Origin: a virus
Taxonomy: Duplodnaviria > Heunggongvirae > Uroviricota > Caudoviricetes
Virus record (IMG/VR): IMGVR_UViG_2571042870_000013
Span: 1-15,765 of that record
Reading direction: 5' to 3' (one strand)
DNA length: 15,765 nt
Positions within the stretch are counted from its first letter, which is position 1. Each line of letters starts with the position of its first letter. The notes under the pieces were generated by a model, which worked only from the letters and a program-made list of their open reading frames with translations, ran no database searches and was not told where the DNA came from. Position numbers and translations under genes: made by a program. This document shows, piece by piece, positions 1-15,765 of the stretch.

Positions 1-40
1 GACCATTACCAAATAGTTTATATGCTAAAAATTTAGGGAA

Positions 41-3000
41 TCATTTTCCTAATTCTCCAGCTAAAAGTTCAGCCTGCTTCAAAACAGTCTCTGTGGCGAG
101 CAATGACATATCAGGCGGATAACCATATTTTTTGAGCAGACGTTTTACCACCACGCGAATTTTTGCTCTTGCTGCTTCTTTCACTGTCCAGTCAAGACTG
201 ACATTGTTGCGGATAGCCTCCGTAAGTACGACTGCCAGTTCTCGTAGTTTTTCCTTTTCCATTAACTCGCGAGCACTGTCGTTATCTGCAACAGCAGAAT
301 AGAAGGCATATTCATAAGCGCTGAGGTTTAACTGGCTGGCAAGGCTGTCAGATTCCTGGATAGTCTTGGCAAGCTTGATTAGCTCATCAATTACCTCCGC
401 TGCGGTCAGTACCTTGTTCTGGTAGCCATTGATTGCAGAGGTCAGCATATCAATCAGTTTTTTGCCTTGGGTGATACTTTGATTCGAGCGAACCTTGATC
501 TCGTCAGAAAGCAGTTTTTTAAGCGTTTCCAAAGCAATATTTCTGTGTTGGTAATCCTTCATTTCCTGAAGGAATTCTTCAGAAAGAACGGAAATATCAG
601 GTTTTTGTATCCCAGCAGCGTCAAAAATATCAACAACTTTATCGGTAACCAGAGCCTGATCGATAGTCTGTTTTACCCGAACTTCGAGACTGTCATTGTG
701 TTCTTCTTCTGATCCGTCTGAGTTTTCAGTAAATTTATTCAGTCTGGCTTTTACTGCCTGGAAGAATGCTACTTCGGGTGCCGCTTCCATTGCTTTATCG
801 TGCGGTGTCGCCAATGCAAATGCCTGCGATAAGGCTGCAACCGCAGCGAGGAAACGCATTTTACCTTTACCGTTATCCAGCCCTAAAATATGGTTTTCTG
901 ATTCAAGAATAATTGTCAGGCGTTGTGAGGTAGTTGCGGCAAAGTAAGCTTTGTAATCGTATCCATGCATCATGCCTTCCAGGATTTCCAGCTTTTCCTG
1001 CATGAGCGTTACGGCTTCTTCCTGAACCTCAGCAGGATCTCCACGTCCACCTGCATCAGAGTAAAAGGAGAGGGCTTCTTTTAAATCAGAGGCAATGCCC
1101 AGATAGTCAACAACCAGACCGCCTATCTTATCTTTATACACACGGTTCACACGGGCAATTGCCTGCATAAGGTTGTGGCCTTTCATTGGTTTGTCGATAT
1201 ACAGCGTATGCATGCTGGGAGCGTCGAAGCCGGTTAACCACATATCACGCACTATCACCAGTTTCAGCTTGTCGTCGTCATCCTTCATACGGTTAGCCAG
1301 AACCTGACGTTCTTTTTTTGTGGTGTGGTGTTTGGCAATTTCTGGCCCGTCAGCAGCAGAAGAGGTCATGACGACTTTTATTATACCGTCATTTAAATCA
1401 TCGCTGTGCCATTCAGGTTTTAAGGCTATGATTTCTTTATATAGTTCAGCAGCAATACGGCGGGACATGGTAACAATCATGCCCTTACCATGATCGGCAT
1501 TGGATTTTAAGCGCTGCTCAAAGTGCAGAACCATATCCGCCGCAATCGCTTTAATACGTTTTGAACTGCCAATCAAACCTTCGATTCTGGCCCATTTAGA
1601 ACGTTCTTTTTGCGTGAGCGTCAGTTCGTCCTCGTTAAACTCATCATCAAAGTCTTCAATAAGCTGACGACCTTCATCACTGATGGCAATTTTGGCAAGA
1701 CGGCTTTCATAAAAGATACGAACTGTTGCACCATCTTCAACGGCCTGCGAGATATCGTAGATATCAACATAGTTACCAAAAACAGCAGGCGTGTTGACGT
1801 CCGTTTTTTCTATGGGGGTTCCGGTAAAGCCGAGATAGGTCGCATTAGGTAAGGCATCACGCATATATTTGGCAAAGCCGTAAACGGTGCGTTTACCTGT
1901 TACGTTGCCTTCGCTGTCTTTCACGTCAACTTCTTTGGCGCTGAAACCGTACTGGGAACGGTGTGCTTCATCAGCGATAACGACAATATTGGTTCTGTCT
2001 GACAACAACTCATAGATATTGCTGCCATCATCAGGCTGGAATTTTTGAATAGTAGTAAACACCACACCGCCAGAGGCGACACGCAAATATTCTTTGAGTT
2101 CTTCCCGGTTGTTGGCCTGTTTTGGTGTCTGACGAAGTAGCTGGGTCGCGGAAGAGAACGTACCGAATAGCTGATCATCTAAGTCGTTACGGTCAGTAAT
2201 CACAACAACTGTCGGATTATCCAGCGCCAGCACAATTTTCCCGGTATAAAACACCATCGAAAGCGATTTACCGGAACCCTGAGTATGCCAGACTACGCCC
2301 GCTTTGCGATCTCCGGTTTTTTGCGCATTAACAAGATCTTTACTGTTACGTCCCTGCTGGCGCAGTGCCACTTCGGCAGAGGGGGAGTCCGCATTCACCG
2401 CTGAGGCACGAATAGTGGAAAGAACTGCTGCATTGACCGCGTAGTACTGGTGATAAGCCGCCATTTTTTTAACAGTACGGATACTGATAATCCCTTTGCT
2501 GTCTTCATGTTTGCTGGCCTCAAACACGATAAAGTGGCGGATTATATCCAGCAGCGTTACAGGATTAAGCAACCCCTGTAATAAAACTTCAAGCTGTGGT
2601 TGGGTACTGGTGGCTTGCGTTTTACCGTTAGCAGTTTTCCACGTCATATAACGACTGAAATCGGCAGAAACCGTCCCCGCTTTGGCTTCCAGCCCGTCAG
2701 ATATCACATTAAAAGCATTGTAGTTAAACAGACCGGGGATTTGGTTCTGATAGGTTTTAATCTGATTATAGGCACCTGTTACCGTTGCATTTTCGTCAGC
2801 GGCATTTTTAAGTTCGATAACGACTAATGGCAGGCCATTGATGAATAAAATAAGATCAGGTCGGCGGGTATGGTTGCCTTCTTTGATGGTGAGCTGATTA
2901 ATGACCAGAAATGCATTATTAGTGGGATCGTTAAAGTCGATCAGGCTGGCCAGTTCTCCTTGTGTATTACCATCCTTGCTGACTTCGATATTGATTCCTT

Positions 3001-3280
3001 CGGTCAAAAGGCGATGAAAGGTTAGATTGTTTGCCATTAGGTCAGGTGAGCTGATCTGCATCACCTGTTTTAGAGCTTCTTCACACTTCTGCTCACTAAG
3101 GTGCGGGTTAATTCGTTGCAATGCTGTACGCACTTTATCTTCAAGGATAACCTGCTGATAGCTACGTAACGGATTGATTCCACTGGGTTCAATGTCCGGG
3201 CCGTAAACATACTCATAGCCCAGCCCTTGCAGGTGCTCAATTGCCATTACTTCAATATCGGATTCGGTCATCTTTGCCAT
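41..3280 (-). CDS. hsdR: Type I restriction enzyme R subunit (endonuclease/translocase) HsdR
   Basis: 1079-aa ORF. N-terminal PD-(D/E)xK-like nuclease motif (PDLILFINGLPLVVIELK), helicase motif I (HTQGSGKS) and DEAH-type motif II (VVIADEAHRSQ), which is the hallmark architecture of HsdR. SD-like AAGGA about 10 nt upstream of the ATG at 3278-3280. Lies directly downstream of hsdM-hsdS on the same strand. Confidence 0.92.
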   Translation of the reverse strand: MAKMTESDIEVMAIEHLQGLGYEYVYGPDIEPSGINPLRSYQQVILEDKVRTALQRINPHLSEQKCEEALKQVMQISSPDLMANNLTFHRLLTEGINIEVSKDGNTQGELASLIDFNDPTNNAFLVINQLTIKEGNHTRRPDLILFINGLPLVVIELKNAADENATVTGAYNQIKTYQNQIPGLFNYNAFNVISDGLEAKAGTVSADFSRYMTWKTANGKTQATSTQPQLEVLLQGLLNPVTLLDIIRHFIVFEASKHEDSKGIISIRTVKKMAAYHQYYAVNAAVLSTIRASAVNADSPSAEVALRQQGRNSKDLVNAQKTGDRKAGVVWHTQGSGKSLSMVFYTGKIVLALDNPTVVVITDRNDLDDQLFGTFSSATQLLRQTPKQANNREELKEYLRVASGGVVFTTIQKFQPDDGSNIYELLSDRTNIVVIADEAHRSQYGFSAKEVDVKDSEGNVTGKRTVYGFAKYMRDALPNATYLGFTGTPIEKTDVNTPAVFGNYVDIYDISQAVEDGATVRIFYESRLAKIAISDEGRQLIEDFDDEFNEDELTLTQKERSKWARIEGLIGSSKRIKAIAADMVLHFEQRLKSNADHGKGMIVTMSRRIAAELYKEIIALKPEWHSDDLNDGIIKVVMTSSAADGPEIAKHHTTKKERQVLANRMKDDDDKLKLVIVRDMWLTGFDAPSMHTLYIDKPMKGHNLMQAIARVNRVYKDKIGGLVVDYLGIASDLKEALSFYSDAGGRGDPAEVQEEAVTLMQEKLEILEGMMHGYDYKAYFAATTSQRLTIILESENHILGLDNGKGKMRFLAAVAALSQAFALATPHDKAMEAAPEVAFFQAVKARLNKFTENSDGSEEEHNDSLEVRVKQTIDQALVTDKVVDIFDAAGIQKPDISVLSEEFLQEMKDYQHRNIALETLKKLLSDEIKVRSNQSITQGKKLIDMLTSAINGYQNKVLTAAEVIDELIKLAKTIQESDSLASQLNLSAYEYAFYSAVADNDSARELMEKEKLRELAVVLTEAIRNNVSLDWTVKEAARAKIRVVVKRLLKKYGYPPDMSLLATETVLKQAELLAGELGK

Positions 3281-3338
3281 GCGTACTGTCCTTATTGCCG
3301 CTTAACCAGAGAGCGGGCTGTACACCCGCATAATTATT

Positions 3339-4532
3339 TTATGCTACTGATGCGATTGCTTCTTCCGCATACTGAACCCGTACTTCGCCGCTCATCAGTT
3401 TGGGAAGGAGAGTGTCGCGCAGAGATTCTATGTTTTTAATTTGTGAGTTGTTAATACTTATTTTTTTCCAGAAGAAATCAATCTGTGTAGTGAATTCTTT
3501 CACCATACACTCCGGGGGGAGTTTGAATTCTGGGCGTTGTAATCCGTCAGCCGACAGCTGATTTACAGTTGAACCGTTAGTTGCAGCAACAACTTGCTCA
3601 TGCATATCTTTGGAGCAAAGTAAATAGTACAGAAAAGCATTGGTTAAGTAACTATCGTCATTGATGCTGATTTTAAATAAATGATGCGTATATATGGATA
3701 ATTCGCTTTCTGTTTTTGGAATTATAGCAGGATACCCTATGAGTCGATATTCATGGCCCTGTTCTGTATTGGCTACAATGATATCCCCAGGCTTTATAAT
3801 ATGCCTTTCTTTAAAATCACCATTGTAGTATTTTATACCTGCACTCTTATAACCACCGCCCTCAAGTACTGAGTTCAAACTAAAAAGTGGAATGCCGTTA
3901 TCTGACGTGGTAAGGCCGGCTCCCTTGTAGCTTAATCCCTTAGCTACTGTAATATGACAATCAAGAGTCGTTATTTCCCAATCCGCATGCGTCTCTTCAA
4001 TAAACCACTGTCTAAATAGGGTTTCTGCCATGGATTCCAGAGTTTTATTCTGGCGATGAAGCAGGTCTATTTTGTCTTTAAGAGAGGACAAAATAGAGGC
4101 GATGGCTTTTTGTTCAGATTCATCAATTGGTAAGTAAAGAGGAATCAAATTTAGCGATGCTTTATTTAATTTTGGTTGAGCAGCACCTGTTAAATAAGGA
4201 GATAGATCAAGTTGTGAAAAATATTGGATTATCAATGCCGTTAAATGGGGCTTTTTAGCTTTAAGGACATGAGCGTGATTATTAACCCAAAATTTTCCAG
4301 TAGCTTCAAATGCTATAGGTGTTTTTCTGGACTTTAAGTTTTCTCCATCTTCAGAAATAAGGATGTAGCTGCCATCAAAAATATAATTGTCGATATAATC
4401 GACAATTCCTGACGCTCCATAATATGGAAAATTTCCTTTCTTATGGGCTCGTTCCATAGCACTCAAAGGAATTCTTTGTGCGTTGCAAAAATCTGCTAAT
4501 TCAGTTATACAAAAATTTCTCCACCTACTCAT
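3339..4532 (-). CDS. hsdS: Type I R-M specificity subunit HsdS (two target-recognition domains with central and C-terminal conserved spacers)
   Basis: 397-aa ORF with bipartite HsdS layout: a variable N-terminal region, a central conserved helix ([13 protein letters not shown]), a second variable region, and a C-terminal conserved segment ([14 protein letters not shown]). Its start overlaps the hsdM stop by 4 nt (ATGA at 4529-4532), indicating translational coupling. Confidence 0.88.
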
Positions 4533-6076
4533 AAAACCACCTTCGCCAGATTATCAACGATGGCTCTGTTCAGACGCGCCTCTTCTTCCAGTTGCGCTTC
4601 AAACTCAGCTTTAAGAGCCGTAAAGCGTTCTTTAAAGTCGAAATCGTCTTCTTCATCAGCAAGACCAACATAACGGCCAGGTGTCAGCACATAATCGAGT
4701 TTAGCAACTTCAGCAATGTCTACTGACGCACAGAAACCAGCGACGTCTTCGTAGTCGCCACCTTTGTTACGCCAGTTATGATAGGTATCAGCGATGGTTT
4801 TTATATCGTCGTCAGAAAGTACTTTGGTACGACGATTAATTAAATGACCGAGATTACGGGCATCAATAAACAGAATTTCTTTACTACGATCACGATACTG
4901 GTTGCTGTTATGACGGTCACGGCGCATAAACCATAATGCAGCAGGGATCTGAGTATTCAGGAACAGCTTTGCCGGTAAGTTGACGATACAGTCAATCACA
5001 TTGGCATCTTTTACCAGTGCAGCACGAATATCACCTTCACCAGAGCTTTTAGAAGTTAATGCCCCTTTTGCCAGAACAACACCCGCTTGCCCTTTAGGAG
5101 ACAAGTGATACAAAAAATGTTGCATCCATGCAAAGTTAGCGTTGCCAGCAGGTGGAATGCCATATTGCCAGCGGGCATCACCACGAAGCTGCTCACCAGA
5201 CCAGTCGGAAACGTTAAACGGTGGGTTAGCTATGATAAAATCAGATTTCAAATCTTTGTGAGCATCGTTAAGAAATGAACCTTCATTATTCCAGCGAACG
5301 TGTTCAGAATTAATCCCACGAATTGCCAGGTTCATTTTTGCCAGACGCCAAGTGGTCTGGTTGGACTCCTGCCCATAGATCGAAATATCGTCAATATTTC
5401 CCTGATGTGCTTCTACAAATTTTTCTGACTGAACGAACATACCACCAGAACCACAGCAGGGATCAAAGACACGGCCTTTATAGGGTTCCAGCATGTTAAC
5501 CAGCAGGCTTACAATAGATTTTGGCGTATAGAACTGGCCGCCTTGTTTGCCTTCTGCCAGTGCAAATTCACCTAGGAAGTATTCGAATACGTGACCTAAA
5601 ACGTCAGCAGAGCGTGCTTTGGCATCTCCTAGTGCAATGTTGCCAATCAGATCTATCAGCTCACCCAGAACAGTGGCGTCGAGGTTTTGTCGGGCATAGA
5701 CTTTCGGCAACACACCTTTTAACTGTGGATTGCCCGCTTCGATAAGCTCCATCGCATCATCAACCATCTTACCGATTTCAGGAAGCTTGGCCTTAGAAAT
5801 CAGATAGTTCCAACGTGCAAGCTCAGGGACAAAGAAAACGTTGTAAGCGGTGTACTCGTCTTTGTCTTCCGGATCAGCACCTGCGAACTCGCCTTTACCG
5901 GCTTTCAGCAACTCATAATGAGATTCAAAAGAATCAGAAATGTACTTAAGGAAAATGAGGCCTAGTACGACGTGCTTGTACTCGGCTGCATCAATGTTTT
6001 TACGCAGTTTGTCTGCCGCTTTCCACAGGATGACCTCTAACGGGTCTGTTTTGATTTCTTTAGGTTTTCTGGCCAT
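4529..6076 (-). CDS. hsdM: Type I R-M N6-adenine DNA methyltransferase subunit HsdM
   Basis: 515-aa ORF with a SAM-binding motif I ([12 protein letters not shown]) and catalytic motif IV NPPF ([12 protein letters not shown]), typical of gamma-class N6-adenine methyltransferases of Type I systems. First gene of the M-S-R operon. Confidence 0.92.
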
Positions 6077-6224
6077 TAGCGTAACCTTATGAAGGGGGAA
6101 GATGGCCCTATTTTGCCTTAAAGTTCCGCTTGTTACGAGCTTATACAGCGATTAATTATTATCTGGTTTTAGTGTGTTCGTGTAGCTCAGCAAGTGCAAT
6201 GACTCATGGAGTAAATGCTTTGTA

Positions 6225-6557
6225 GCGGGATTGTAGATGTCAGGTCATTGCCGTCAATGGAGCCAGTGTCATTGGCATAATTGCTGCACAGCCGATGCCA
6301 CGCGCACATTCGCTAGTTCACTGTGGTTCATCGTGTGTACTACACCAGTACGCAGTCCGGGAAGTAACGGCATGGCAGAATCGTTTGTAAAGACGTTCAA
6401 GCGGGATTATGTGTACGTAGATGATCTGCTGGATGCAGTCTAAATGATGGAAACAATGGCAGAATAGATAGAGGATTATAATAATCTGCATCCACACAAG
6501 GGGTTGAACATGAAATCGCCACGCGAATATCGTGATGCCATATTAGCAGTTAATTAG
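6225..6557 (+). pseudogene. Remnant of a DDE (rve/integrase-core type) IS transposase C-terminus, interrupted by two in-frame stop codons
   Basis: A single reading frame gives ...TPVRSPGSNGMAESFVKTFKRDYVY...DLLDAV(stop 6441-6443)...MAE(stop 6465-6467)IEDYNNLHPHKGLNMKSPREYRDAILAVN(stop 6555-6557). The SPxxNGxxESF...LK and YNxxRPH...SP.EY-like motifs are the conserved C-terminal signature of IS3-like DDE transposases. The N-terminal catalytic part is missing and the frame is broken. Confidence 0.6.
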
Positions 6558-6997
6558 CCGTGTCCGTTTTAGCAGGGACAACTCCAGTATTCAAAAAAGC
6601 TTTCTTAGTGCATATGCATGAGGTGAATAGATGTACAGGCTATGACAAACCATAGTTGTAATTTTTAATGTTTAAAATTCTCCGTTACAGTAGGACATTC
6701 CTTGTACATTAAATTCCATCTAAGGTTGAATTTTTAATTTAATAAGGTCGCAATCTAAAATGATGTGTATGGGGTTATTTGTAAGATGATTTTTTATTTT
6801 TGATAGTGGTGATTAAGGGAGCGGGTAATGTTTGTCTATTCAAAAATATAGAGATTCAAGGTTGGTAGCAGTTTGGCTTCTTTTATAACCGAAGGGCAGA
6901 AAAGCAAGGGGAACTCGAAGAAGCAAGCGCAGCGGCTTCGCAGAGTTAGCCCTTGCTTCTCTTATAATTGGCATTATTCATTCAAGAACAATAGGAT

Positions 6998-7017
6998 CTT
7001 CGCTTGTACAAGCGAAG
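6998..7017. repeat. Perfect 20-bp palindrome CTTCGCTTGTACAAGCGAAG
   Basis: Read directly from the sequence: arms of 9 bp around a central TA, with perfect dyad symmetry. Lies in the gene-free spacer downstream of the ParB-like operon. Confidence 0.9.
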
Positions 7018-7672
7018 CTATAATAAAAACAATCAATTAATAATTTTAAAAGTATTAAACAAGAACCTATTGACATTCATAAAATACAAGTTATTTATAA
7101 TGTATGCCATAAATAAAAAGTTTTATGTCATATGTATCCTGCACTATGTGCAGTTAATGTACCACTTGTCCCATAGATGGGAATATTGGAAAGGTTACTT
7201 TGTTTTGAAGTAGCCTTTCGTCCTTCAATATTAACGATTACTTATTGCTATTACCAAGTCCAGTCGAATCGAAGAACATCTTTTATCTGAAACGACTCCT
7301 AATACCCGGTTAAAGCCACAATATCTCTCGCATACGTAGACCAAAGAAAAATTATGATATTAACTATGTGATTTTTTTTAGTGTTAAGTTGAATAATTAA
7401 ATACTGGAGAGTTTTCTGTGCACTACCAATTGCTGGTTCATCTGTTCTGCCGCTGATGTTTCTGACGAATCTCCCGGTGACACAGAACTGTCCCTCTCTA
7501 CCAGCCTTTATTCGACTCAATGTCCGGCTGCTGATACGCAGTTATCCCTTCGTATCAATGACTGACACTTAAACGTAATGCTTTGGTTGCTGGCGTATCT
7601 GACAGCTTCTTCGGCGTGAAGGTCGTTGTGTAAGTATACTTCTTGGTTTATTTAGGCTATATAAAACCATGA

Positions 7673-8569
7673 CTATGACTTGCTGTTTTCAGTAAGAGTC
7701 TTATCATCCAAAGAATTTATTCTAGAAATTCTTTTTAACTCATTAAGATAATCAACCTCGTTTTCTAAGAACCAATGAAGAACTTTAGAATTGCCAAGTA
7801 ATTTATTAATATATGACTGGATTATAACGAATTTCAACATATCTGAACCATACTCGGTTTGAAGCTTTTTCGTTTCTTCCGAAGTTGTTGCCATTTCTTG
7901 TTCCAGACGAAGTATGGTTTTTTTTATGTCCTTTTTATAGGGAGTGTTTTTCCCTTTATTTACTATCATCGATGCCGGTGTTGCATCCAAGATGCTCATT
8001 GCAAATTTTTTACTATAATTATCAAAATTAATCATTGTACCGACTGCTTCAATTTGGCGAATTGGCTTCATTTTCCTCAAAACGTCAAATGTAGCCTTAG
8101 GTATAGGTTTATCAGAAAGTTTCGCAATTACACTTGGATCTATGCCGTTCATCACATTCGCTTTATCTTTTATGGCATCAACAGATATGCCCAAAGCAGC
8201 ACTAAGTTTTTCAATTGATACTTTTGCCAGAGACTTAATTATCATTCTATGTTCTTCAACTACATTTATATGATTCACTTGTTTGTTAGGAGTGAAAGCA
8301 TCATCTATGCTCGAAAGTATACATGGAGCTTTTTCTATACCTAAGTCTTTTAAAGCCTCAACCCTTAAATGGCCATCAAGTATCTTAGTGACATCTTTAT
8401 CTTTGTCATAGAATACTATTATTGGTTCAATAATACCTAAGCTTTCGATAGAGGTAACTATTTGATGATATTTATGGCTTCGCTTTACGTTTTCTAATAA
8501 TTCCTTAGATGGAATTAACTTATTAGTTTCCAGGTAAATAAAATTATCGCCAAAACGTATCTGAATCAT
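7673..8569 (-). CDS. Divergent ParB/Srx-fold protein (ParB-like partner 2), function unknown
   Basis: 298-aa ORF. N-terminal region resembles the ParB N-domain (IEPIIVFYDKD...ILDGHLRVEALKDLGIEKAPCIL) with a DGxxR-type box, followed by an HTH-like segment (SIEKLSAALGISVDAIKD). It lacks the arginine-rich ENxxRR box present in the upstream paralogue. Its start overlaps the upstream gene's stop (ATGA at 8566-8569). Confidence 0.6.
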   Translation of the reverse strand: MIQIRFGDNFIYLETNKLIPSKELLENVKRSHKYHQIVTSIESLGIIEPIIVFYDKDKDVTKILDGHLRVEALKDLGIEKAPCILSSIDDAFTPNKQVNHINVVEEHRMIIKSLAKVSIEKLSAALGISVDAIKDKANVMNGIDPSVIAKLSDKPIPKATFDVLRKMKPIRQIEAVGTMINFDNYSKKFAMSILDATPASMIVNKGKNTPYKKDIKKTILRLEQEMATTSEETKKLQTEYGSDMLKFVIIQSYINKLLGNSKVLHWFLENEVDYLNELKRISRINSLDDKTLTENSKS

Positions 8570-9462
8570 TTTAATACCTCTTTGTTTACTGGGGTTAATA
8601 TCTGAGATGGTAGTTCTGAAAGATTCTCTTGTTCAAGTATATGTTGAAAGCTTTTATTCATCATTATGATGTTAAAAATCTCATTTACTATTAGTAGGTT
8701 GGTTTTTATGAATTTTGAGTTGTTATAAACAGATTTATGTTCAGCGATACTATTTTCATAAAGCTCAATCAACTCCTCTGCAGTCATCCTTTTTGATGGT
8801 TTGTGATAATAAAATCCGGCTGCTTTTGCACCTTTATTCCCAACTGTTCTTTGATTTAGAATGTGTTTTATCTTTATAATGTCCCGACTTTTTATTAATT
8901 TTTTATCATATGCTTCGGTAAGAATATCTTGTGCTTCCTCAGTTTCACATCTTGCAAATTGCACTGCGAGATACAGAGGCAAATTACCCCGTTCGACTGC
9001 TGAGAGAAGTTTATGCTCTCCCTTATCAAGTAGCATATTAATACTGCTCACCCAGTTCGATGAATATCCAGTAATCTCACTTATTTCGGAGTCTGAAAGT
9101 CCTCTGATTTTCATGTCTTTAATCACCTGTAATAACTCATTAGAACGTGGTCTTCTCCTTGCAATGTTTTCAACTAAACTCATAACGTAAGCATCTTCTT
9201 CTGATACATCTCTTATAATTGCTGGAATAATAGTTTCACCTAATGCAACGAGAGCCTCTATTCTCCCTTGACCACAAATTAAAGCATATTTGAAATCGCC
9301 TTCATCAATAGCTCTTACGCTTATTGGCTTGCTTAATCCTCTTTTTTTTATGCTTTCCTTTATTTCTTCATGCACTACCTTATTTCTTGTTCGTGGGTTA
9401 AGAAATTTTATTTTTGCAATCTCAATTTGAATTATTGGGAATTCATTTTTTTCAGGCAGCAT
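8566..9462 (-). CDS. ParB/Spo0J/KorB-like DNA-binding protein with HTH (ParB-like partner 1)
   Basis: 298-aa ORF. Colinear with ParB-family N-domains: NPRTR, PISVR, GQGRIEALVALGETIIPAIIRDVSEEDA, then the arginine box LVENIARRRP, then an HTH (GLSDSEISEITGYSSNWVSSINMLL). Its start overlaps the end of the serine recombinase gene by 11 nt (9452-9462). Confidence 0.72.
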   Translation of the reverse strand: MLPEKNEFPIIQIEIAKIKFLNPRTRNKVVHEEIKESIKKRGLSKPISVRAIDEGDFKYALICGQGRIEALVALGETIIPAIIRDVSEEDAYVMSLVENIARRRPRSNELLQVIKDMKIRGLSDSEISEITGYSSNWVSSINMLLDKGEHKLLSAVERGNLPLYLAVQFARCETEEAQDILTEAYDKKLIKSRDIIKIKHILNQRTVGNKGAKAAGFYYHKPSKRMTAEELIELYENSIAEHKSVYNNSKFIKTNLLIVNEIFNIIMMNKSFQHILEQENLSELPSQILTPVNKEVLK

Positions 9463-11008
9463 ATAGTTCCCTCACTTTCATGCGAGTAATAATTTGTAGA
9501 AGTTTATCAAGATTATCAAATCTATAGAGATCTAATCGAATGTTGTTTGTTTCCGTCATGCACATTTTATTATATTCGTTTTCAATCTTTGGTATGATAT
9601 AAAAATCAAGAGGTGAAATATTTTGTGAATTCATTCGTATAACAATTGTTATGTCTGCTTTCTGTGAGTTATCAAACCGGACTTTCCATCTAAGTTTACC
9701 TGATTTCATATGTATGCATTTAGTAACAAGGACGGAAATTAAAAACTCATCATTGATGTAAAGCATTGGGGCATATTTATACTCGTCTATATGACAGTTA
9801 CTTTTTAAAATTTCACCCTTAAAATCCTCAATTATCTCTGAGTAAAATGATCTTAGTGCTTCATTTATTTTGAGATAGCTGTAATCATGTTCTGGCTTAT
9901 AACCAATCAAAGTATATGCTCTTAAAAGACCACCAAATCGGGTTCTATAAACAGAAGATGAAGGGCCTGTATCATCTTCATCAATGATAAAGCCTGATAG
10001 TTTTCCATTAGATTCTAATTTTTGTTTTAGTTTTTCTAATAGATCTTCATTAGTCAAATGAATGGATCGGAGCTGAATTATTTCTTGAGCTTTATTGTAT
10101 TTTTTCTTTGAAATAATAGGTTTATATGCCTTGTCACATCTAACCCATTCATGTTTGGGGTTTTTTACAAGCCTACTTTTTAATTTAGATGAGGTTTTGT
10201 TATATATGTTGTTTCCAATATATTTTTCATTTGTCAAAATTTGATGTATTTTTGCACGAGTCCATAATGTTCCATTTTCTGCAGGTATGTTCTGTTCATT
10301 TAATCTCTCAGCAATAATGAATTCTGGGACGTTATTATCTATAAAGAGATCATATATTCTATTTACAATTTTTATTTCATTTTTTGGTCCCGGAATTAAT
10401 ATTACCCTATCTGTTTGAATACTCTTTCTTTTGCGGAAACTCAATATTTCTTTAGCTATGCCATTTTCGTCTACTAAAAGACGTCTCAGCCCATAACCAG
10501 CCATACCGCCTTGATGATAACCAAGCTTTATTAAATTTACTTGCCCTATAAATACCTTTTCAGATAGATTCCTGCTGTGATATGCAGCACTAGATCTTTT
10601 TATATTCAGTATAACAGAGGACTCTAAAGGGAAATCTTTAGTGGGTATAGGTTCGGAACAATATATAAGATCTACACCATTTCTCTCAAATAGAAAGGAA
10701 TAATATGCCGCTTCATCACTATTTTGAAAACGACCAAAACGGCTCACATCATAAAATAATACAGCCTGTATATCTATTTTCTTTTGTTCTACATCGCTAA
10801 GTAACTGCTGCAAAGAATGCCTGCCTACGATACTGACTCCGCTCTTACCTGCATCATCGTAGGTATAAGCGATTTCCATATTGTTCTTTTCAGCATAATC
10901 TTTGATATATTCGGACTGATTATGTAAAGAATATTGCTGATGGTCGGTAGACATCCTCAAGTACTGCGCGACCCTAACTCTATGATTTTTGTCATTTTCG
11001 CTAGCCAT
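9452..11008 (-). CDS. Large serine recombinase (resolvase/invertase catalytic domain plus recombinase domain plus long C-terminal extension)
   Basis: 518-aa ORF. N-terminal catalytic motif YLRMSTDHQ (putative nucleophile Ser20), DDAGKSG, and VLFYDVSRFGR; a recombinase-domain segment (GYHQGGMAGYGLRR...LWTRAKIHQILTNEKYIGNNIY); and about 230 further residues typical of large serine recombinases. SD-like GAGG precedes the ATG at 11006-11008. Confidence 0.88.
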   Translation of the reverse strand: MASENDKNHRVRVAQYLRMSTDHQQYSLHNQSEYIKDYAEKNNMEIAYTYDDAGKSGVSIVGRHSLQQLLSDVEQKKIDIQAVLFYDVSRFGRFQNSDEAAYYSFLFERNGVDLIYCSEPIPTKDFPLESSVILNIKRSSAAYHSRNLSEKVFIGQVNLIKLGYHQGGMAGYGLRRLLVDENGIAKEILSFRKRKSIQTDRVILIPGPKNEIKIVNRIYDLFIDNNVPEFIIAERLNEQNIPAENGTLWTRAKIHQILTNEKYIGNNIYNKTSSKLKSRLVKNPKHEWVRCDKAYKPIISKKKYNKAQEIIQLRSIHLTNEDLLEKLKQKLESNGKLSGFIIDEDDTGPSSSVYRTRFGGLLRAYTLIGYKPEHDYSYLKINEALRSFYSEIIEDFKGEILKSNCHIDEYKYAPMLYINDEFLISVLVTKCIHMKSGKLRWKVRFDNSQKADITIVIRMNSQNISPLDFYIIPKIENEYNKMCMTETNNIRLDLYRFDNLDKLLQIITRMKVRELYAA

Positions 11009-11178
11009 GCACGAAACCTCATGGATGATTCAATACAATGTAGTGGATAAAATTGATCAAATTTCAACCGAATTCAACTGTTTTATCATTGATTAGAGCG
11101 AATTTGGTAGATCTTCGAGGTGTATGATAATCGAGAAGAGATGTGAATTATTTAGCTGATATGACCGACAGCTTTCGT

Positions 11179-11228
11179 TATGTGGACTCAATGTCCCCAT
11201 TTGTAAATGGCTATGCTTAGTCCACATA
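11179..11228. repeat. Nested inverted repeat: 10-bp arms (TATGTGGACT / AGTCCACATA) enclosing an inner palindrome CCATTT-GT-AAATGG
   Basis: Read directly from the sequence in the intergenic region between the P4-type integrase stop (11291) and the serine recombinase start (11008). Outer arms at 11179-11188 and 11219-11228; inner dyad at 11197-11210. Confidence 0.8.
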
Positions 11229-11290
11229 GGTTAATGGTGTGATTATTAATTCTTTAACTAAATCAAGATAGTTAATCCATCATGGGAGAG

Positions 11291-12520
11291 TTATGCGGCA
11301 ATAACTTTGCATTTTTGAGACGAAACATAGTCACTCCACCATTGCATGAGAACCACCCGTTCAGTGAGATACTCTGCACGATTGTAGGCTGCAATTATTT
11401 CATCTTTCTTCGAGTGGGCAAGGGCGGCTTCTAAGACATCAGTCCTAAACTTGCCAGACTCCTCAGCAGCCGTTCTAGCAATGGATCGCATACCGTGAGC
11501 TACAAGCTCACCTCCGAAACCCATACGGATTATGGCCGCATTAGCTGTTTGTTCATGCATGTGATTGAGTGGAGCTTTGATACTGGGGAACACCCACTCT
11601 CTATGCCCGCTGATGACTTTCATTAAATCCAAAACTCGCAAAGCTTCTTTGCTCAGTGGAACTTTGTGAGGCTTCTTCATTTTCATAAACTCCGCCGGGA
11701 TGTTCCACATGCCAGTTTCAATATCAATATCTGACCATCTTGTGCGAACAGCTTCACCTGGGCGAACCCATGTGAGAAGTTGCCACTCAATCAGTAGCCT
11801 TGTTTCCAAACGGATAGAAGCATTGTTTAGAGCAACCAAGAAGCGAGGGAGTTCGGAAGGGGGTAATGCTGGCATATTCTGTTTTTTTGGCTTGCTGAAC
11901 CGTTGCCCCAGGTTGTCTGCCGGGTTGAATTCTATGAGTTCTTCTGTTGCTGCATAGCGGAAAATTTCATTCAGGCGGGATATGATGCGGCGAAGTGTTT
12001 CAAGGACACCTCGTTTTTCTATGGGTTCTAAATGCTGTTTAAGCATTTTAGGGCGAATCTCCTTAATTGGGGTATCACCCAATGTGGAAAAGATATTTCT
12101 CTCTAGGCTTCGCCAGATGTCGTTAGCATGATCTTGGGAGATGCCTGACGTTTTGACTTTCTCATCAAGCCACTTCTTGGCTACTGCTTGAAATGTATGT
12201 TCCGTGGCATCTTTCAGTGCATTGGCTTTTTGGTTGTTATGAACTTGGGGGTCTATACCATTTGTAAGCAACGACAAGTATTCATCACGTAAAGCTCGTG
12301 CCTTCGCAAGTGTAAGGTGAGGATAGGTTCCTAAGCTCACCTTAGTTCGCTTTTTGGTCACAGGCACTGCATATCTGAAATACCAATTTTTCTTCCCTCC
12401 CTTCGCCAGGGGAGCGATTCGCAACAGCAAACCATCGCCGTCAAAAAGGTCAACCTCTTTTTCGGCAGGTTTGGTGCTTTTGATTTCAGTGTCAGTGAGC
12501 TTCTTAGCGATTTTGGCCAT
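11291..12520 (-). CDS. int: P4-type tyrosine integrase (CP4-57 IntA-like); true start taken as the ATG at 12518-12520 rather than the upstream GTG at 12601
   Basis: N-terminus MAKIAKKLTDTEIKSTKPAEKEVDLFDGDGLLLRI...WYFRY matches the characteristic N-terminus of P4-family integrases. C-terminal catalytic region has HGMRS (HxxR) and AAYNRAEY (catalytic Tyr). It is adjacent to a copy of the ssrA 3' end, the classic target of this family. Confidence 0.9.
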   Translation of the reverse strand: MAKIAKKLTDTEIKSTKPAEKEVDLFDGDGLLLRIAPLAKGGKKNWYFRYAVPVTKKRTKVSLGTYPHLTLAKARALRDEYLSLLTNGIDPQVHNNQKANALKDATEHTFQAVAKKWLDEKVKTSGISQDHANDIWRSLERNIFSTLGDTPIKEIRPKMLKQHLEPIEKRGVLETLRRIISRLNEIFRYAATEELIEFNPADNLGQRFSKPKKQNMPALPPSELPRFLVALNNASIRLETRLLIEWQLLTWVRPGEAVRTRWSDIDIETGMWNIPAEFMKMKKPHKVPLSKEALRVLDLMKVISGHREWVFPSIKAPLNHMHEQTANAAIIRMGFGGELVAHGMRSIARTAAEESGKFRTDVLEAALAHSKKDEIIAAYNRAEYLTERVVLMQWWSDYVSSQKCKVIAA

Positions 12521-12618
12521 GTTTGGGACCCTCGATTTTAGGACCCATCTTCGTGGGTCCCATTCAGGGTGCCATAACTCGTAGTTCTCAGCAATTCTCA
12601 CTAGACTACAATAGACGT

Positions 12619-12650
12619 AAAAAAGCCCGCAGAGCTTGTGCTGTGCGGGC
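12619..12650 (-). terminator. Rho-independent terminator (minus strand) between the att core and the integrase
   Basis: On the minus strand the sequence reads GCCCGCACAGCACAAGCTCTGCGGGC followed by TTTTTT: a GC-rich stem of about 7 bp with a loop, then a T-run. Confidence 0.55.
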
Positions 12651-12686
12651 TTAGTAGACTTTACTGAACTTCAGTACATCAATATT

Positions 12687-12731
12687 TGGTGGAGCTGGCG
12701 GGAGTTGAACCCGCGTCCGAAATTCCTACAT
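12687..12731 (-). repeat. ssrA: 45-nt copy of the 3' end of the tmRNA gene ssrA (attachment-site core / direct repeat); not a full ssrA gene
   Basis: The minus strand reads ATGTAGGAATTTCGGACGCGGGTTCAACTCCCGCCAGCTCCACCA, which matches the 3' terminus (T-arm, acceptor stem, CCA) of enterobacterial tmRNA as I recall it. Identity stops after these 45 nt; the adjacent sequence at 12732 onward has no resemblance to the ssrA body. Confidence 0.85.
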
Positions 12732-12846
12732 ACCATTTTCACTATAACAAAAACATTAACTTGCGTTTAAAATCATCAAGTTAGTATTATCTTATGTTTG
12801 TCCGTTTTACTCATTTTTAATGCTCTGTCGCCAATCTGTCGCCACA

Positions 12847-13497
12847 TTATCCGCTGCTTGAGTTGAAATCTGTGGGTTTACGGAGATTAGATCTTATGGT
12901 TTTTTCAGCGATACGAATAGTCGAAAATTTATGCAGGTTCATCAGTGCTATACAAATCCCAAGTGCAAAAAAGTAGCTGGACATTCCTAATCTTTGCATA
13001 TCAGTAAGTTTATTAATTTTCTCTAAAATATGTTGGGTTACTAATCCTTCGTATACAAAAGGTATGGAAGTTATAAAACCGCCAATAAAATAGAATGTTA
13101 AGCTTATCAGCTTTATAGATTTTCTATATATCCAAAAGCGATATCTTTTTTTTGTCCATTTAAATATTTGTTTTTCACTACTAATAGAAATTAGTTTTTG
13201 ACACTTGCTATAGTTATCAATGTCATTAACTGGATCGTTAACACCTAAAAGAATCTCTCTCTGTTCTGGAGTTAGGTTCTTATCTTTTGTTATTGCAGCA
13301 ATACCATAATTATATGCAACTTTCTTGATTTTGGGATCTTCAGTATTCTTATATAGATTGTATGCAAACTCGCTAATGTTTTTGCGCGAGTTGAAAATCT
13401 TATCTTTGGGGAAAACCCAGCCGGATCTTACCGCGAGCATCTGTATGATCGGGGTAATTATCGCGACAGAATACTTAATTATCTCGTTTATGTTCAT
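12847..13497 (-). CDS. Hypothetical small membrane protein (accessory 'moron'-like gene) immediately downstream of the prophage integrase
   Basis: 216-aa ORF, AT-rich relative to the neighbouring int and cI genes. Hydrophobic segments (LISLTFYFIGGFITSIPFVY, MSSYFFALGICIALMNL) suggest 2-3 transmembrane helices. Its start is only 14 nt downstream of the int stop on the same strand, so it is probably co-transcribed with cI-int. No family recognised. Confidence 0.55.
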   Translation of the reverse strand: MNINEIIKYSVAIITPIIQMLAVRSGWVFPKDKIFNSRKNISEFAYNLYKNTEDPKIKKVAYNYGIAAITKDKNLTPEQREILLGVNDPVNDIDNYSKCQKLISISSEKQIFKWTKKRYRFWIYRKSIKLISLTFYFIGGFITSIPFVYEGLVTQHILEKINKLTDMQRLGMSSYFFALGICIALMNLHKFSTIRIAEKTIRSNLRKPTDFNSSSG

Positions 13498-13511
13498 GAT
13501 CCATTGTTTAC

Positions 13512-14528
13512 TTAAATTAAGTTATAAAGAGGGTTTTTTGTTACTGCATCCTCCAGGTGGTCTGGAGAGAAGTGTGCATAAATCATCGTCATTTTAATAT
13601 CTGAGTGCCCTAAAATATCACGTAAAACGAGTATGTTCCCACCGTTCATCATAAAATGGCTGGCAAATGTATGGCGCAGGACGTGGGTGCATTGGCCTTC
13701 CGGTAGTTCAATACCGGCCCGTTTTACCGCCCGTTCAAAGGCTTTTCTGCATGGTGTGAATAATTTCCCTCGGTTTTTGGGTAGCTCGTTGTACAGATCC
13801 TGAGATATCGGTACGGTACGGTTTTTTTTACCCTTGGTCTTTGTATAGGTAATCCGGTATTTCGATAGTTGATGGCCCTGCAGGTTTTCAGCTTCACTCC
13901 AACGAGCACCGGTTGCTAGGCATATTTTTGCAATCATTAGCAGACTGGGGCTTTGAGAATCAGCACAGGCATCCAGCAGACGTTTAATTTCCTCCGGGGT
14001 TAGGAACGCCAGTTCACCCTCCGTAATTTTAAATGTTGGAAGCCCGGCAAGCGGGTTGGGGGCTGACCAGTGGCCCAGCTTTTTCAGTGTACCAAAAACA
14101 GATGATAGGTTGCGCTGTTCAAGGTTTACCGTGCGGGGCTTAACGGGTGACATGAACGAGCCGTCTTCATTTTGGACCTCCCCCTTTAATCTGGCTTCCC
14201 GATATTTTGTGAAATCACCTGCTGTCAGCTCAGAGGCGATGGGATCGCCTAGACCATTACAGATAATTCTAAGTTTCGCCATCAGGCGTTTGGGGTCTGC
14301 GAGTGTTTGACCATATAGGGAATACCACTGCTCAATCACTTCTGATAATCGCCGCCGATCTTCCTTCTCACCAAGCCATGGCTTTTTGTTTACTTCGTTC
14401 ATGGTGAAGTTTTCGAATGCTATGGCTTCGCCTTTCGTGGCAAATTGCTTACGCACGCGCTTGCCATTGCGTCCATTGGGATAGCACTCACACAACCATT
14501 TTCCGTTCGGCTGTTTTCTGATGGTCAT
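13512..14528 (-). CDS. int: P2/186-type phage integrase (tyrosine recombinase)
   Basis: 338-aa ORF. N-terminus (NGKW...RNGKRVRKQF...EAIAFE) and C-terminal catalytic region (HVLRHTFASHFMMNGGNILVLRDILGHSDIKMTMIYAHF) closely parallel P2 Int as recalled (ATHALRHSFATHFMINGGSIITLQRILGH...MVYAHF). Sits directly downstream of a CI-like gene, as in P2/186. Confidence 0.9.
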   Translation of the reverse strand: MTIRKQPNGKWLCECYPNGRNGKRVRKQFATKGEAIAFENFTMNEVNKKPWLGEKEDRRRLSEVIEQWYSLYGQTLADPKRLMAKLRIICNGLGDPIASELTAGDFTKYREARLKGEVQNEDGSFMSPVKPRTVNLEQRNLSSVFGTLKKLGHWSAPNPLAGLPTFKITEGELAFLTPEEIKRLLDACADSQSPSLLMIAKICLATGARWSEAENLQGHQLSKYRITYTKTKGKKNRTVPISQDLYNELPKNRGKLFTPCRKAFERAVKRAGIELPEGQCTHVLRHTFASHFMMNGGNILVLRDILGHSDIKMTMIYAHFSPDHLEDAVTKNPLYNLI

Positions 14529-14529
14529 A

Positions 14530-15162
14530 TCAAAGGCTCTTAATGATTTTCAGTGCACGGCCTACTACCTCAATGTCATCCAGGCCACACTCAAACGATG
14601 AATCATCCTGATGCACTACTAATCTGTTTCCCGGGAGTCGAGTCAATTTAACAATGCTTTTTATCCCGTCGATATCGACTAACCACATACCATTCACTGG
14701 TGGTGTTTGGTTGCGATCTATTAAATAAGAATCACCAGAAGTAGTCACCAGCAGTAGGTTGCTTGAGTCTGAGGGGAGTATGCTGCTATCAATGATTGCT
14801 TTTCCAGCATCGACCAATAAACCACCGTTGAGAGTCGCCTTGTCAATTTCAGGAGATACTAGTTCAGAAAGAGGTACAACCTTGCTGGAGTTCACGGAAT
14901 TGATATTTTTTTTAGGTTCAATGTTTGGACCTGGCTCCCCCTGTCCGGTGGTTAGCCACAGTAAAGAAACTCCTGTTTCCAAGGCGCACTGAATCACCCA
15001 CTCTGCAGGAAAACTATCTCTTAAGTATCTGTTTGCCATGGTGCTTTTTGATGCGCCTAAGTGATCGCAAAGTTGCTGTCTGGACTTGAAATCATAGGCT
15101 GCCATTAGTCTATGGATAGCTTCTCTTCCCCCTGTATTCTCTCCAGCCTTTACCTGTATCAT
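14530..15162 (-). CDS. cI: Phage 186-type CI immunity repressor
   Basis: 210-aa ORF with CALETGVSLLWLTTGQGE and GMWLVDIDGIKSIVKLTRLPGNRL...FECGLDDIEVVGRA, closely matching conserved blocks of coliphage 186 CI as recalled. Transcribed divergently from the Cox/Apl-like and CII-like genes. Confidence 0.85.
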   Translation of the reverse strand: MIQVKAGENTGGREAIHRLMAAYDFKSRQQLCDHLGASKSTMANRYLRDSFPAEWVIQCALETGVSLLWLTTGQGEPGPNIEPKKNINSVNSSKVVPLSELVSPEIDKATLNGGLLVDAGKAIIDSSILPSDSSNLLLVTTSGDSYLIDRNQTPPVNGMWLVDIDGIKSIVKLTRLPGNRLVVHQDDSSFECGLDDIEVVGRALKIIKSL

Positions 15163-15281
15163 TTTTTAATCCTGTTGACGTATCAAATATTGGATCGTAG
15201 TATCTCGATGTATCAAATATTGAATCAATTAAAACGAGATAAAACGACGTAAACCAAACCTTAATCGGGAGATACTGCACT
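15163..15281. promoter_or_regulatory. Prophage lysis/lysogeny switch region: candidate rightward sigma70 promoter (TTGACG 15175-15180, 17-nt spacer, TAGTAT 15198-15203) and two near-identical 17-bp operator-like repeats (15180-15196 and 15210-15226)
   Basis: Read from the sequence. GTATCAAATATTGGATC and GTATCAAATATTGAATC are each internally near-palindromic (ATCAAAT/ATTgGAT) and lie 30 bp apart, between divergent cI and cox/apl-like genes. The first repeat overlaps the candidate promoter spacer. Confidence 0.5.
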
Positions 15282-15524
15282 ATGAGCACTGATATTTCAA
15301 TTCGTGTACCAAAAGAGATGGCTACGCCTGCAGAGTTCGCGGAATGGGAAGGTATCTCCCGCGGCTCCGTGTATCAAAAAATTCACCATGGTCAGCTTGC
15401 TAAATACATGGTCAAGAAAGAAAAAAATAAAGGCCGCGTAAACCTTCGTTATCTGATGTACAAAACTGATCAGGTCCGTGAATCCCTCGGTCATTCCAAC
15501 TTCCGCGTCATTGTTGGTAAGTAA
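15282..15524 (+). CDS. Cox/Apl-family small HTH protein (excisionase / early-lytic repressor candidate)
   Basis: 80-aa ORF in the position of cox/apl (between cI and cII, divergent from cI). The segment ATPAEFAEWEGISRGSVYQKIHHGQL parallels the HTH of P2 Cox as recalled (AIPYQEFAKLIGKSTGAVRRMIDKGKL). GGGAG SD-like sequence upstream. Confidence 0.6.
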   Translation: MSTDISIRVPKEMATPAEFAEWEGISRGSVYQKIHHGQLAKYMVKKEKNKGRVNLRYLMYKTDQVRESLGHSNFRVIVGK

Positions 15525-15555
15525 GTTCAATTATGGGAACTTTCTAAGGGGGCAC

Positions 15556-15765
15556 CATGTTTGATTACAAGATTTCCAAACATCCGCATTTCGATGAAGC
15601 CTGTAGGGCTTTTGCACTGCGTCACAACCTGGTGCAACTGGCAGAACGTGCAGGCATGAATGTACAGATTCTGCGGAACAAGCTGAACCCAGCTCAGCCT
15701 CATTTATTAACCGCACCAGAAATCTGGCTGCTTACCGATCTGACTGAAGATTCAACGCTGGTAGA
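15556..15765 (+). CDS. cII: Phage 186 CII-like regulator, 3'-truncated by the window end
   Basis: ATG at 15556 is preceded by an AAGGGG SD. Translation [69 protein letters not shown] closely matches the N-terminus of coliphage 186 CII as recalled. It has no stop within the window, which is why it is absent from the supplied ORF track. Confidence 0.8.

Follow-up and report, generated by a model that had tools for sequence, protein, structure and literature searches.

Two adjacent and overlapping genes for ParB-like proteins, designated here A (positions 8566 to 9462) and B (positions 7673 to 8569), raise the question of what purpose such a pair serves within the window, which denotes the whole 15,765-nucleotide stretch of DNA analyzed (positions 1 to 15,765 of IMG/VR record IMGVR_UViG_2571042870_000013, Caudoviricetes). 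The original prediction, made from the sequence alone, regarded the pair as an active subunit and a degenerate partner, and overlooked the product of the gene directly upstream, Rec (positions 9452 to 11008), an atypical large serine recombinase which represents the obligate third partner of the A/B unit and which, on that account, changed our view of the pair's most likely purpose. Together, the three minus-strand genes constitute an uncharacterized and widespread cassette of a recombinase and a ParB pair, built from known folds. Tentatively, we favor a role for this trio as a recombination module, in which a heteromer of A and B would act as a nucleotide-switched, DNA-binding accessory to Rec.

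Composition and distribution of the Rec-A-B cassette

A motif-seeded search through 185,579 species, each represented by one genome, served to assess the distribution of the cassette and identified a relative of B in 336 of them. The order Rec, A, B was retained in 76 of the 80 species loci fetched, the remaining four being truncated by contig ends, and the genes are translationally coupled, those of the window overlapping by 11 nucleotides (nt) between Rec and A and by 4 nt (ATGA) between A and B. These 80 loci include Enterobacterales, many Alphaproteobacteria, Betaproteobacteria, and one metagenome-assembled genome (MAG) of the Acidobacteria; the trio is also present in Geobacter sulfurreducens, in Paraburkholderia, and on the At plasmid of Agrobacterium fabrum C58 (pAtC58). 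Among 90 plasmid records carrying the trio, 58 are conjugative. Within Escherichia coli, the stretch corresponding to positions 6400 to 11300 of the window was identified in 701 of 5,426 complete genomes (13%), every time on the chromosome and in one to two copies per genome, the carriers including BL21 derivatives and strain 042; strain K-12 lacks it. At a threshold of E ≤ 1e-30, 462 clusters (50% identity) among 1.84 billion representatives fall into the B family.

Clustering of the flanking open reading frames (ORFs), together with Pfam and PADLOC analysis of 146 neighbors, revealed no fourth conserved gene and yielded a heterogeneous mixture of integrase, transposase, helicase, Fic, AbiE, and restriction-modification (R-M) genes, which indicates that there is no further obligate partner. 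In particular, none of the ORFs in flanks of up to 10 kb at 84 loci carried the Walker A motif of ParA/MinD (KGGxGK[ST]), and no ParA-type Pfam family was detected among the ten long ORFs of the window. The suggested heteromer had been described beforehand as a departure from the homodimeric ParB arrangement, and the lack of ParA at these 84 loci shows that the organization is not that of a usual ParABS system. Full-text literature searches returned no published description of the Rec-A-B trio; the nearest paper, a survey of the ParB-CTPase fold (PMC12704722), discusses orphan ParBs on mobile elements and mentions neither recombinases nor tandem pairs.

Both A and B are specified by ORFs of 298 codons' worth of amino acids (298 aa each) on the minus strand. 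Pfam assigns A to ParB_N (PF02195) with an E value of 1.6e-13 (50.9 bits versus a cutoff of 26.3) and to RepB with 8.5e-8; for B the corresponding values are 1.1e-5 for ParB_N, which at 25.8 bits lies marginally below the cutoff of 26.3, and 2.2e-24 for RepB. Both proteins exceed the threshold of 30 bits of the latter family (PF07506), B with 87 bits and A with 32.9 bits, while the RepB equivalog model TIGR03454 scores A at 35.6 bits against a cutoff of 201.5 and does not match B. A phmmer search against the PDB retrieved for A the Thermus thermophilus Spo0J (2.5e-12), followed by Myxococcus xanthus ParB, Noc, and KorB, and for B the Bacillus subtilis Noc (2.2e-5). Single-chain AlphaFold2 models, built from alignments of 112 sequences for A and 103 sequences for B, reached pLDDT values of 81 and 78, respectively, and in Foldseek comparisons with the PDB their top matches were ParB, Noc, Spo0J, and KorB over approximately 200 columns (E values of 1e-10 to 5e-10). 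The N-terminal domain on its own additionally resembles the serine kinase SerK, SbnI, and sulfiredoxin; for B, this branch is matched with 24 to 27% identity at a root mean square deviation (rmsd) of 2 to 3 Å, and the NCBIfam SerK model with an E value of 1.8e-7.

The domain organization of the two proteins is likewise shared. A helix-turn-helix (HTH) is apparent in the models and in the alignments to PDB entries of both, spanning residues 107 to 146 of A (positions 9025 to 9144; model helices at residues 107 to 119, 124 to 131, and 135 to 146, aligned to the HTH of Spo0J) and residues 103 to 140 of B (positions 8150 to 8263). Each model terminates in one long helix, formed by residues 228 to 267 of A (positions 8662 to 8781), where it represents a candidate dimerization element, and by residues 212 to 259 of B (positions 7793 to 7936). 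Direct BLASTP comparison of A and B detects 30% identity across just 63 aa (E value of 0.001), whereas hhalign comparison of the two families aligns 249 columns at 17% identity with a probability of 95.6% and an E value of 1.3e-8. Because of this profile alignment and the matching folds, A and B are considered ancient, remote paralogues of identical architecture whose kinship is visible at the profile level. The original prediction of a ParB fold and an HTH in both proteins is thus upheld by Pfam, phmmer, and structural comparison, as is, through the profile-profile alignment, that of tandem paralogues.

The first gene of the cassette encodes Rec (518 aa), which matches the Pfam families Resolvase (PF00239; 7.7e-22) and Recombinase (PF07508; 6e-22) and for which the integrase family phrog_95 (2.7e-69) is the best PHROG and CcrB the best NCBIfam model. 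Its catalytic-serine motif YLRMSTDHQ (S20; positions 10937 to 10963, minus strand) is kept, in the form Y.RmSt..hQ, across 23 aligned homologues, and Rec is classed as an atypical large serine recombinase with a conserved nucleophile motif. Its C-terminal 197 aa gave no match to Zn_ribbon_recom (PF13408) even at E ≤ 10, and the 23 homologues share a single conserved Cys and no conserved four-Cys cluster; the usual zinc-ribbon/coiled-coil module, which binds recombination directionality factors (RDFs), is not recognizable in the sequence, although, no structure of Rec having been modeled, a zinc-free equivalent may be present.

The cassette is further delimited by comparison of related copies, in which DNA identity begins 80 to 450 nt upstream of Rec and ends 2 to 76 nt past the stop codon of B, the flanks being unrelated. 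The copies of Scandinavium and Erwinia, for example, are 96.7% identical from position -203 to position +19 and are embedded in unrelated flanks. As judged from such alignments, the cassette is a discrete, horizontally mobile unit with sharp ends. It recurs beside P4-type integrases, and in the E. coli islands the backbone consists of ssrA, the integrase gene (int), Rec, A, and B, followed by variable distal cargo with breakpoints at position 6878 or at approximately 7625 to 7632. The cargo may be a type I R-M system (as in the window); NACHT and RelA/SpoT proteins; a His-Xaa-Ser system with TIGR04141; a UvrA-like protein with two ThiF proteins, Dcm, and DUF4928; HNH_5 with DUF5677 and DUF6602; or none, in which case int and the trio form a minimal island (L093). 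The same backbone is found at 94 to 100% identity in Enterobacter, Kluyvera, Leclercia, and Phytobacter, and tandem island arrays exist at ssrA.

The nucleotide pocket and the proposed role of the trio

Alignment to solved ParBs locates all three nucleotide-pocket boxes in A. Box I (NPRQPR) is represented by NPRTR within NPRTRNK (positions 9379 to 9399, minus strand), of which N22, R24, and R26 are invariant or near-invariant in the family; Box II (GERR), the P-motif, by GQGR within GQGRIEAL (positions 9250 to 9273), with C63, G64, G66, R67, and E69 invariant; and Box III (ENLQR) by ENIAR within LVENIARRRP (positions 9148 to 9177), with E98, N99, and R102 invariant. In B, PSKELLE occupies the place of Box I, GHLR that of GERR, and PNKQVNH that of Box III. 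The P-motif of B, DGHLRVEAL (positions 8351 to 8377, minus strand), contains the invariant residues D65, G66, R69, and E71, with H67 and L68 conserved in at least 90% of sequences, whereas in the segment replacing Box III (TPNKQVNH, residues 92 to 99; positions 8273 to 8296) only N95 is invariant and the pLDDT falls below 50. The asymmetry between the paralogues is therefore real, as had been proposed, in that the full set of boxes occurs only in the upstream protein A, and it is confined to Boxes I and III, the GxxR of the P-motif being kept in both proteins. The motifs GQGRIEAL, LVENIARRRP, and DGHLRVEAL were all located as originally read, with the qualification that LVENIARRRP, which had been termed an arginine-rich box, is present in A and absent from B but corresponds to Box III (ENxxR), the canonical arginine patch being the GERRxR of Box II.

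The canonical CTPase set of ParB (NPxQPR, GERRxR, and ENxQR) is matched partially by A and only at GHLR by B; the ParB fold is present in both proteins. Substitution of the GxxR Arg by Ala abolished nucleotide binding in the proteins tested in the survey of the fold (PMC12704722). Across the A family, the Gln position of Box I varies, and a near-invariant Gln stands in place of the GERR Glu. In M. xanthus ParB, these two residues, the Box I Gln and the GERR Glu, are reportedly required for CTP hydrolysis (PDB 7bnr, Q52A; PDB 7o0n, E93A). Because both catalytic residues are replaced, A may bind nucleotide with slow turnover or none.

The proposal that B is degenerate is not borne out by the conservation of its family. 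The A family displays 24 invariant columns among 112 sequences, including R24, R26, and the C63, G64, G66, R67, E69, E98, N99, and R102 of Boxes II and III, and the B family displays 19 among 103 sequences, including S31, K33, Q36, E48, C83, and the D65, G66, R69, E71, and N95 mentioned above. The invariant residues of B cluster where the corresponding segments form the pocket in ParB. Since B possesses its own set of invariant columns, it is a specialized rather than a decaying protein, constrained about as strongly as A.

We propose that the trio operates as one machine centered on Rec, given the invariant coupling of three genes, the lack of ParA, the lack of the usual regulatory module in Rec, and the presence of two HTH proteins with matching C-terminal helices. 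Formation of an A/B heteromer is plausible in view of the strict 1:1 co-occurrence of the two genes, their 4-nt translational coupling, the equal length of their products, and the long C-terminal helix predicted in each model. A and B would associate via these helices; A would function as a nucleotide-binding (CTP-type) switch or clamp that loads onto DNA through its HTH, and B, as a specialized noncanonical partner, would contribute a second DNA- or ligand-binding surface. The heteromer would then select, bridge, or gate the DNA sites at which Rec recombines, a function that in other systems falls to RDFs or, for the recombinase XisF, to XisH and XisI. As a result, the cassette, or its host island or plasmid, would be inserted, excised, or rearranged, rather than segregated in the manner of ParABS.

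A number of findings weigh against this proposal. No recombination sites were identified, and no end motif or att-like sequence is common to the different cassette lineages; repeat scans of positions 6000 to 11400 and of the sequences preceding the trio in 11 other lineages disclosed no conserved palindrome or parS-like site; and neither an empty site nor an excised circle was observed. The copy number of one to two per genome is low and unlike that of an insertion sequence (IS), and the E. coli island carries a tyrosine integrase of its own. Furthermore, the neighborhood, with its many genes for R-M, Abi, NACHT, and helicase proteins, suits a defense system equally well.

The main rival, which we consider somewhat less likely than the recombination module, is that the trio represents an unrecognized antiphage or antiplasmid defense system, in which A and B would detect incoming foreign DNA or be loaded on it, and Rec, as the effector, would break or scramble this DNA. 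The self-contained nature of the cassette and its patchy horizontal spread (701 of 5,426 E. coli genomes; 336 of 185,579 species) would fit such a system, as would its occurrence as the sole cargo of the minimal island and its position at a hotspot for defense cargo. AbiE and a type I R-M system adjoin the trio in Geobacter; AbiEii, Fic, and a restriction enzyme are found on pAtC58; and the neighbors also include helicases similar to those of Hma, Gabija, and DISARM. NTPase domains of the ParB/Srx type already serve restriction of the GmrSD/SspE type. These same neighborhoods, however, are common to maintenance genes of mobile elements, and the trio lacks any domain of the toxin, nuclease, or NADase kind. 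PADLOC-DB 2.0 provided no match for Rec or A, while the sole match of B was to the ParB domain within a model for a type II methyltransferase, and we know of no defense system that employs a serine recombinase as its effector.

A role in plasmid or island maintenance and regulation, whereby Rec would resolve multimers or tandem arrays and A and B, instead of partnering Rec, would repress or silence the carrying element as CTP switches similar to KorB, appears unlikely. It would accord with the conjugative nature of 58 of the 90 plasmid records, with KorB being among the best structural matches and both proteins exceeding the RepB threshold of Pfam, and with the tandem island arrays at ssrA, where resolution would matter. 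The strict coupling through overlapping frames nevertheless argues for a single machine, and Rec, at 518 aa and with its CcrB and integrase matches, is of the large integrase or transposase type rather than a small resolvase. In addition, no res-like or operator repeats were found, and the cassette is mainly chromosomal in Enterobacterales.

A relationship to ParB-fold proteins of the DGQHR or DndB type, linked to DNA modification and restriction and raised in the original prediction, is highly improbable. The DGHLR of B is indeed of the DGxxR type, its N-terminal domain resembles the SerK/SbnI/sulfiredoxin branch, and the window has a type I R-M system downstream of the pair; yet neither Pfam (E ≤ 10) nor NCBIfam (E ≤ 0.01) returned a DndB, DGQHR, or DUF262 (PF03235) match, no dnd or ssp genes were present, both proteins align over their full length, HTH included, to ParB, Noc, and KorB, and the R-M system is exchangeable cargo that is absent from sister islands. 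The weakest candidate, which we regard as having next to no likelihood, is the ordinary ParABS partition locus implied by the Pfam and NCBIfam family names and the RefSeq name "ParB/RepB/Spo0J family partition protein," as there is no ParA within 10 kb at 84 loci, the E. coli locus is chromosomal and integrated, and two divergent ParB-like genes rather than one are coupled to a recombinase; on this evidence, the RefSeq label "partition protein" on both genes is misleading.

Island surroundings of the window and an alphaproteobacterial variant

Along the minus strand of the window, the type I R-M cargo (positions 41 to 6076; by Pfam, hsdR at 41 to 3280, hsdS at 3339 to 4532, and hsdM at 4529 to 6076) is separated by approximately 1.6 kb of noncoding DNA and IS debris from B, A, and Rec. 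Past Rec lie the P4-type tyrosine integrase gene of the ssrA island (positions 11291 to 12601, minus strand) and then the end of a P2/186-like prophage; homology to islands that directly abut ssrA ends at position 12731, and the junction of island and ssrA is placed at approximately this point. The G+C content is approximately 33% across positions 6500 to 11100, compared with approximately 45% in the flanks.

A 283-nt region between int and Rec (positions 11009 to 11290, minus strand) represents the leader or promoter region of the cassette, into which no ORF fits. It contains an imperfect palindrome between the integrase stop codon and Rec (positions 11179 to 11228) with 24-nt arms that are 75% complementary and a 2-nt spacer, which could be an int terminator or a binding site; nothing comparable occurs in 11 other cassette lineages. 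At the opposite end, an unannotated and AT-rich tail of 795 nt (positions 6878 to 7672) travels with the trio in the lineage of the window and is trimmed to differing lengths among strains (344 nt in BL21). Neither an integrase remnant nor an RNA fold signal is apparent in the tail, as the 293 nt that follow B fold no better than shuffled sequences (z of -0.72), and the window as a whole has no Rfam match; the tail is probably decaying DNA. Between the tail and hsdM is a remnant of an IS3-family transposase (positions 6237 to 6557), which RefSeq lists as a pseudogene named "integrase core domain." The prophage end (positions 12732 to 15765), which is in tandem with the island at ssrA, encodes an integrase (13512 to 14528), a CI repressor (14530 to 15162), and a 216-aa product (12847 to 13497) that belongs to phrog_21256, whose function is not assigned.

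The hotspot distal to the trio harbors cargo other than R-M in loci L216 (2611 to 5621), L217 (1151 to 6174), L085 (12633 to 19979), and L088 (11956 to 17986), the His-Xaa-Ser cargo consisting of HxsABCD and TIGR04141; several of these distal sets are themselves uncharacterized candidate defense modules. In a sister lineage of E. coli islands, a remnant of a second P4-type integrase (residues 341 to 436, approximately) follows B after approximately 50 nt and is oriented like the intact int upstream (L008, 10945 to 11230; L009, 4335 to 4627; L217, 6333 to 6623). The trio of this lineage thus has a complete int on one side and a directly repeated int 3' end on the other, an arrangement that looks like the product of a circle inserted into the int gene or of a deletion within a tandem array. 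Site-specific targeting of integrase genes by the cassette was considered and rejected, as the remnant reflects one ancestral event and therefore proves nothing about targeting.

A phage origin of the cassette was likewise rejected, there being one weak GenBank phage record and IMG/VR matches that mostly occupy the margins of predicted proviruses or adjoin the tandem P2-like prophage. In MT837206.1 (L218), a 7.4-kb contig named "Bacteriophage sp.," the trio is followed by a gene for a calcineurin-like phosphoesterase (positions 30 to 878, minus strand), whose fold is that of the RDF of Bxb1, gp47; this may be a coincidence.

Approximately 33 of the 80 genome loci, belonging to Alphaproteobacteria and the Acidobacteria MAG, possess a noncoding stretch after the B stop codon that ends sharply approximately 215 nt downstream. 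It comprises a core of approximately 128 nt with four stem-loops, for example in L047 (10904 to 11031, plus strand) and at the equivalent position in L046, L052, and L066, followed by two variable hairpins. In divergent pairs, the core is conserved above the B gene (85% versus 69% identity). A covariance model, R1, recovers the RNA in all of these loci and in 101 further metagenomic matches (L096 to L195), and across 97 distinct sequences 96% of cells pair, as opposed to 34 to 44% with slid partners. Double changes affect 21 of 36 pairs, and the abundance of G-U pairs suggests an RNA encoded on the strand of the operon. Where a search by the RNA motif alone gave matches with enough upstream sequence, a B gene stood in front in 96 of 104. 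No Rfam family corresponds to this motif, which is proposed as a new candidate RNA family and which, at the end of the operon, marks the boundary of the conserved unit. The R1 model detects no such RNA in the window, other Enterobacterales, Geobacter, Paraburkholderia, or pAtC58.

In the alphaproteobacterial type of clade, 19 loci additionally encode, divergently from Rec, a small protein of approximately 120 to 135 aa with the conserved N terminus MSFPKKGxFFP and a weak HTH_23 signature (..KTVAGWTGANERTVKNW..), examples being L095 (5083 to 5490, minus strand; pAtC58 ATU_RS24150), L064 (7009 to 7368), and L082 (6983 to 7390). This protein is probably a regulator of the cassette; the leader region of the window has no counterpart of its gene.

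Comparison with known systems

The ParB-type CTP switches understood so far act in segregation (ParB), nucleoid occlusion (Noc), and transcription control (KorB and VirB). One speculative possibility is that the trio embodies such a switch in the form of an asymmetric heteromer that would license a serine recombinase, accompanied by a structured RNA in the alphaproteobacterial clade, for target choice or recombinase-based defense. If true, site-specific recombination or defense would join the roles of ParB switches, and a natural asymmetric ParB heteromer would be at hand. The presence of the cassette in BL21 and 042 makes direct testing feasible in standard E. coli strains.

The DndB/DGQHR and DUF262 (GmrSD/SspE) proteins have the N-terminal domain of the superfamily in common with the pair, and the DGxxR-type box with B, but differ in their domain partners, and no modification or HNH genes accompany the trio. 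RepB of repABC plasmids belongs to the family PF07506 whose threshold is passed by A and B; here, however, repA and repC are lacking, and the neighbors are Rec and island genes.

Elements of the IS607 type encode a serine recombinase, TnpA, together with TnpB and a 3' omega RNA. They are comparable with the alphaproteobacterial variant only: in both, the operon of a serine recombinase terminates, where the conserved unit stops, in a conserved RNA with structure. The proteins are unrelated, the variant having a large recombinase and ParB-like proteins in place of TnpB, and there is no evidence of a guide segment in its RNA. Large serine recombinases with RDFs, and among them XisF of the fdxN element in Anabaena, depend for their activity on accessory proteins, those of XisF being two small ones, XisH and XisI, encoded directly downstream. 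The likeness to Rec lies in the combination of a large serine recombinase with accessory proteins, a dependence of Rec on A and B being inferred, whereas XisH, XisI, and the known RDFs lack a ParB fold and A and B are HTH proteins of 298 aa with a predicted nucleotide pocket.

The closest resemblance is to the CTP-dependent DNA clamps ParB/Spo0J, Noc, and KorB, with which A and B share fold and domain order, A also retaining NPRxR, GxxR, and ENxxR. Unlike these clamps, the pair has no ParA- or KorA-type neighbor and no parS-like site was found for it; A carries GQGR in place of GERR, B is without Boxes I and III, and the C terminus of each is a long helix instead of the known ParB dimerization domain. 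Finally, where the clamps are homodimers, the cassette provides two obligate paralogues coupled to a serine recombinase.

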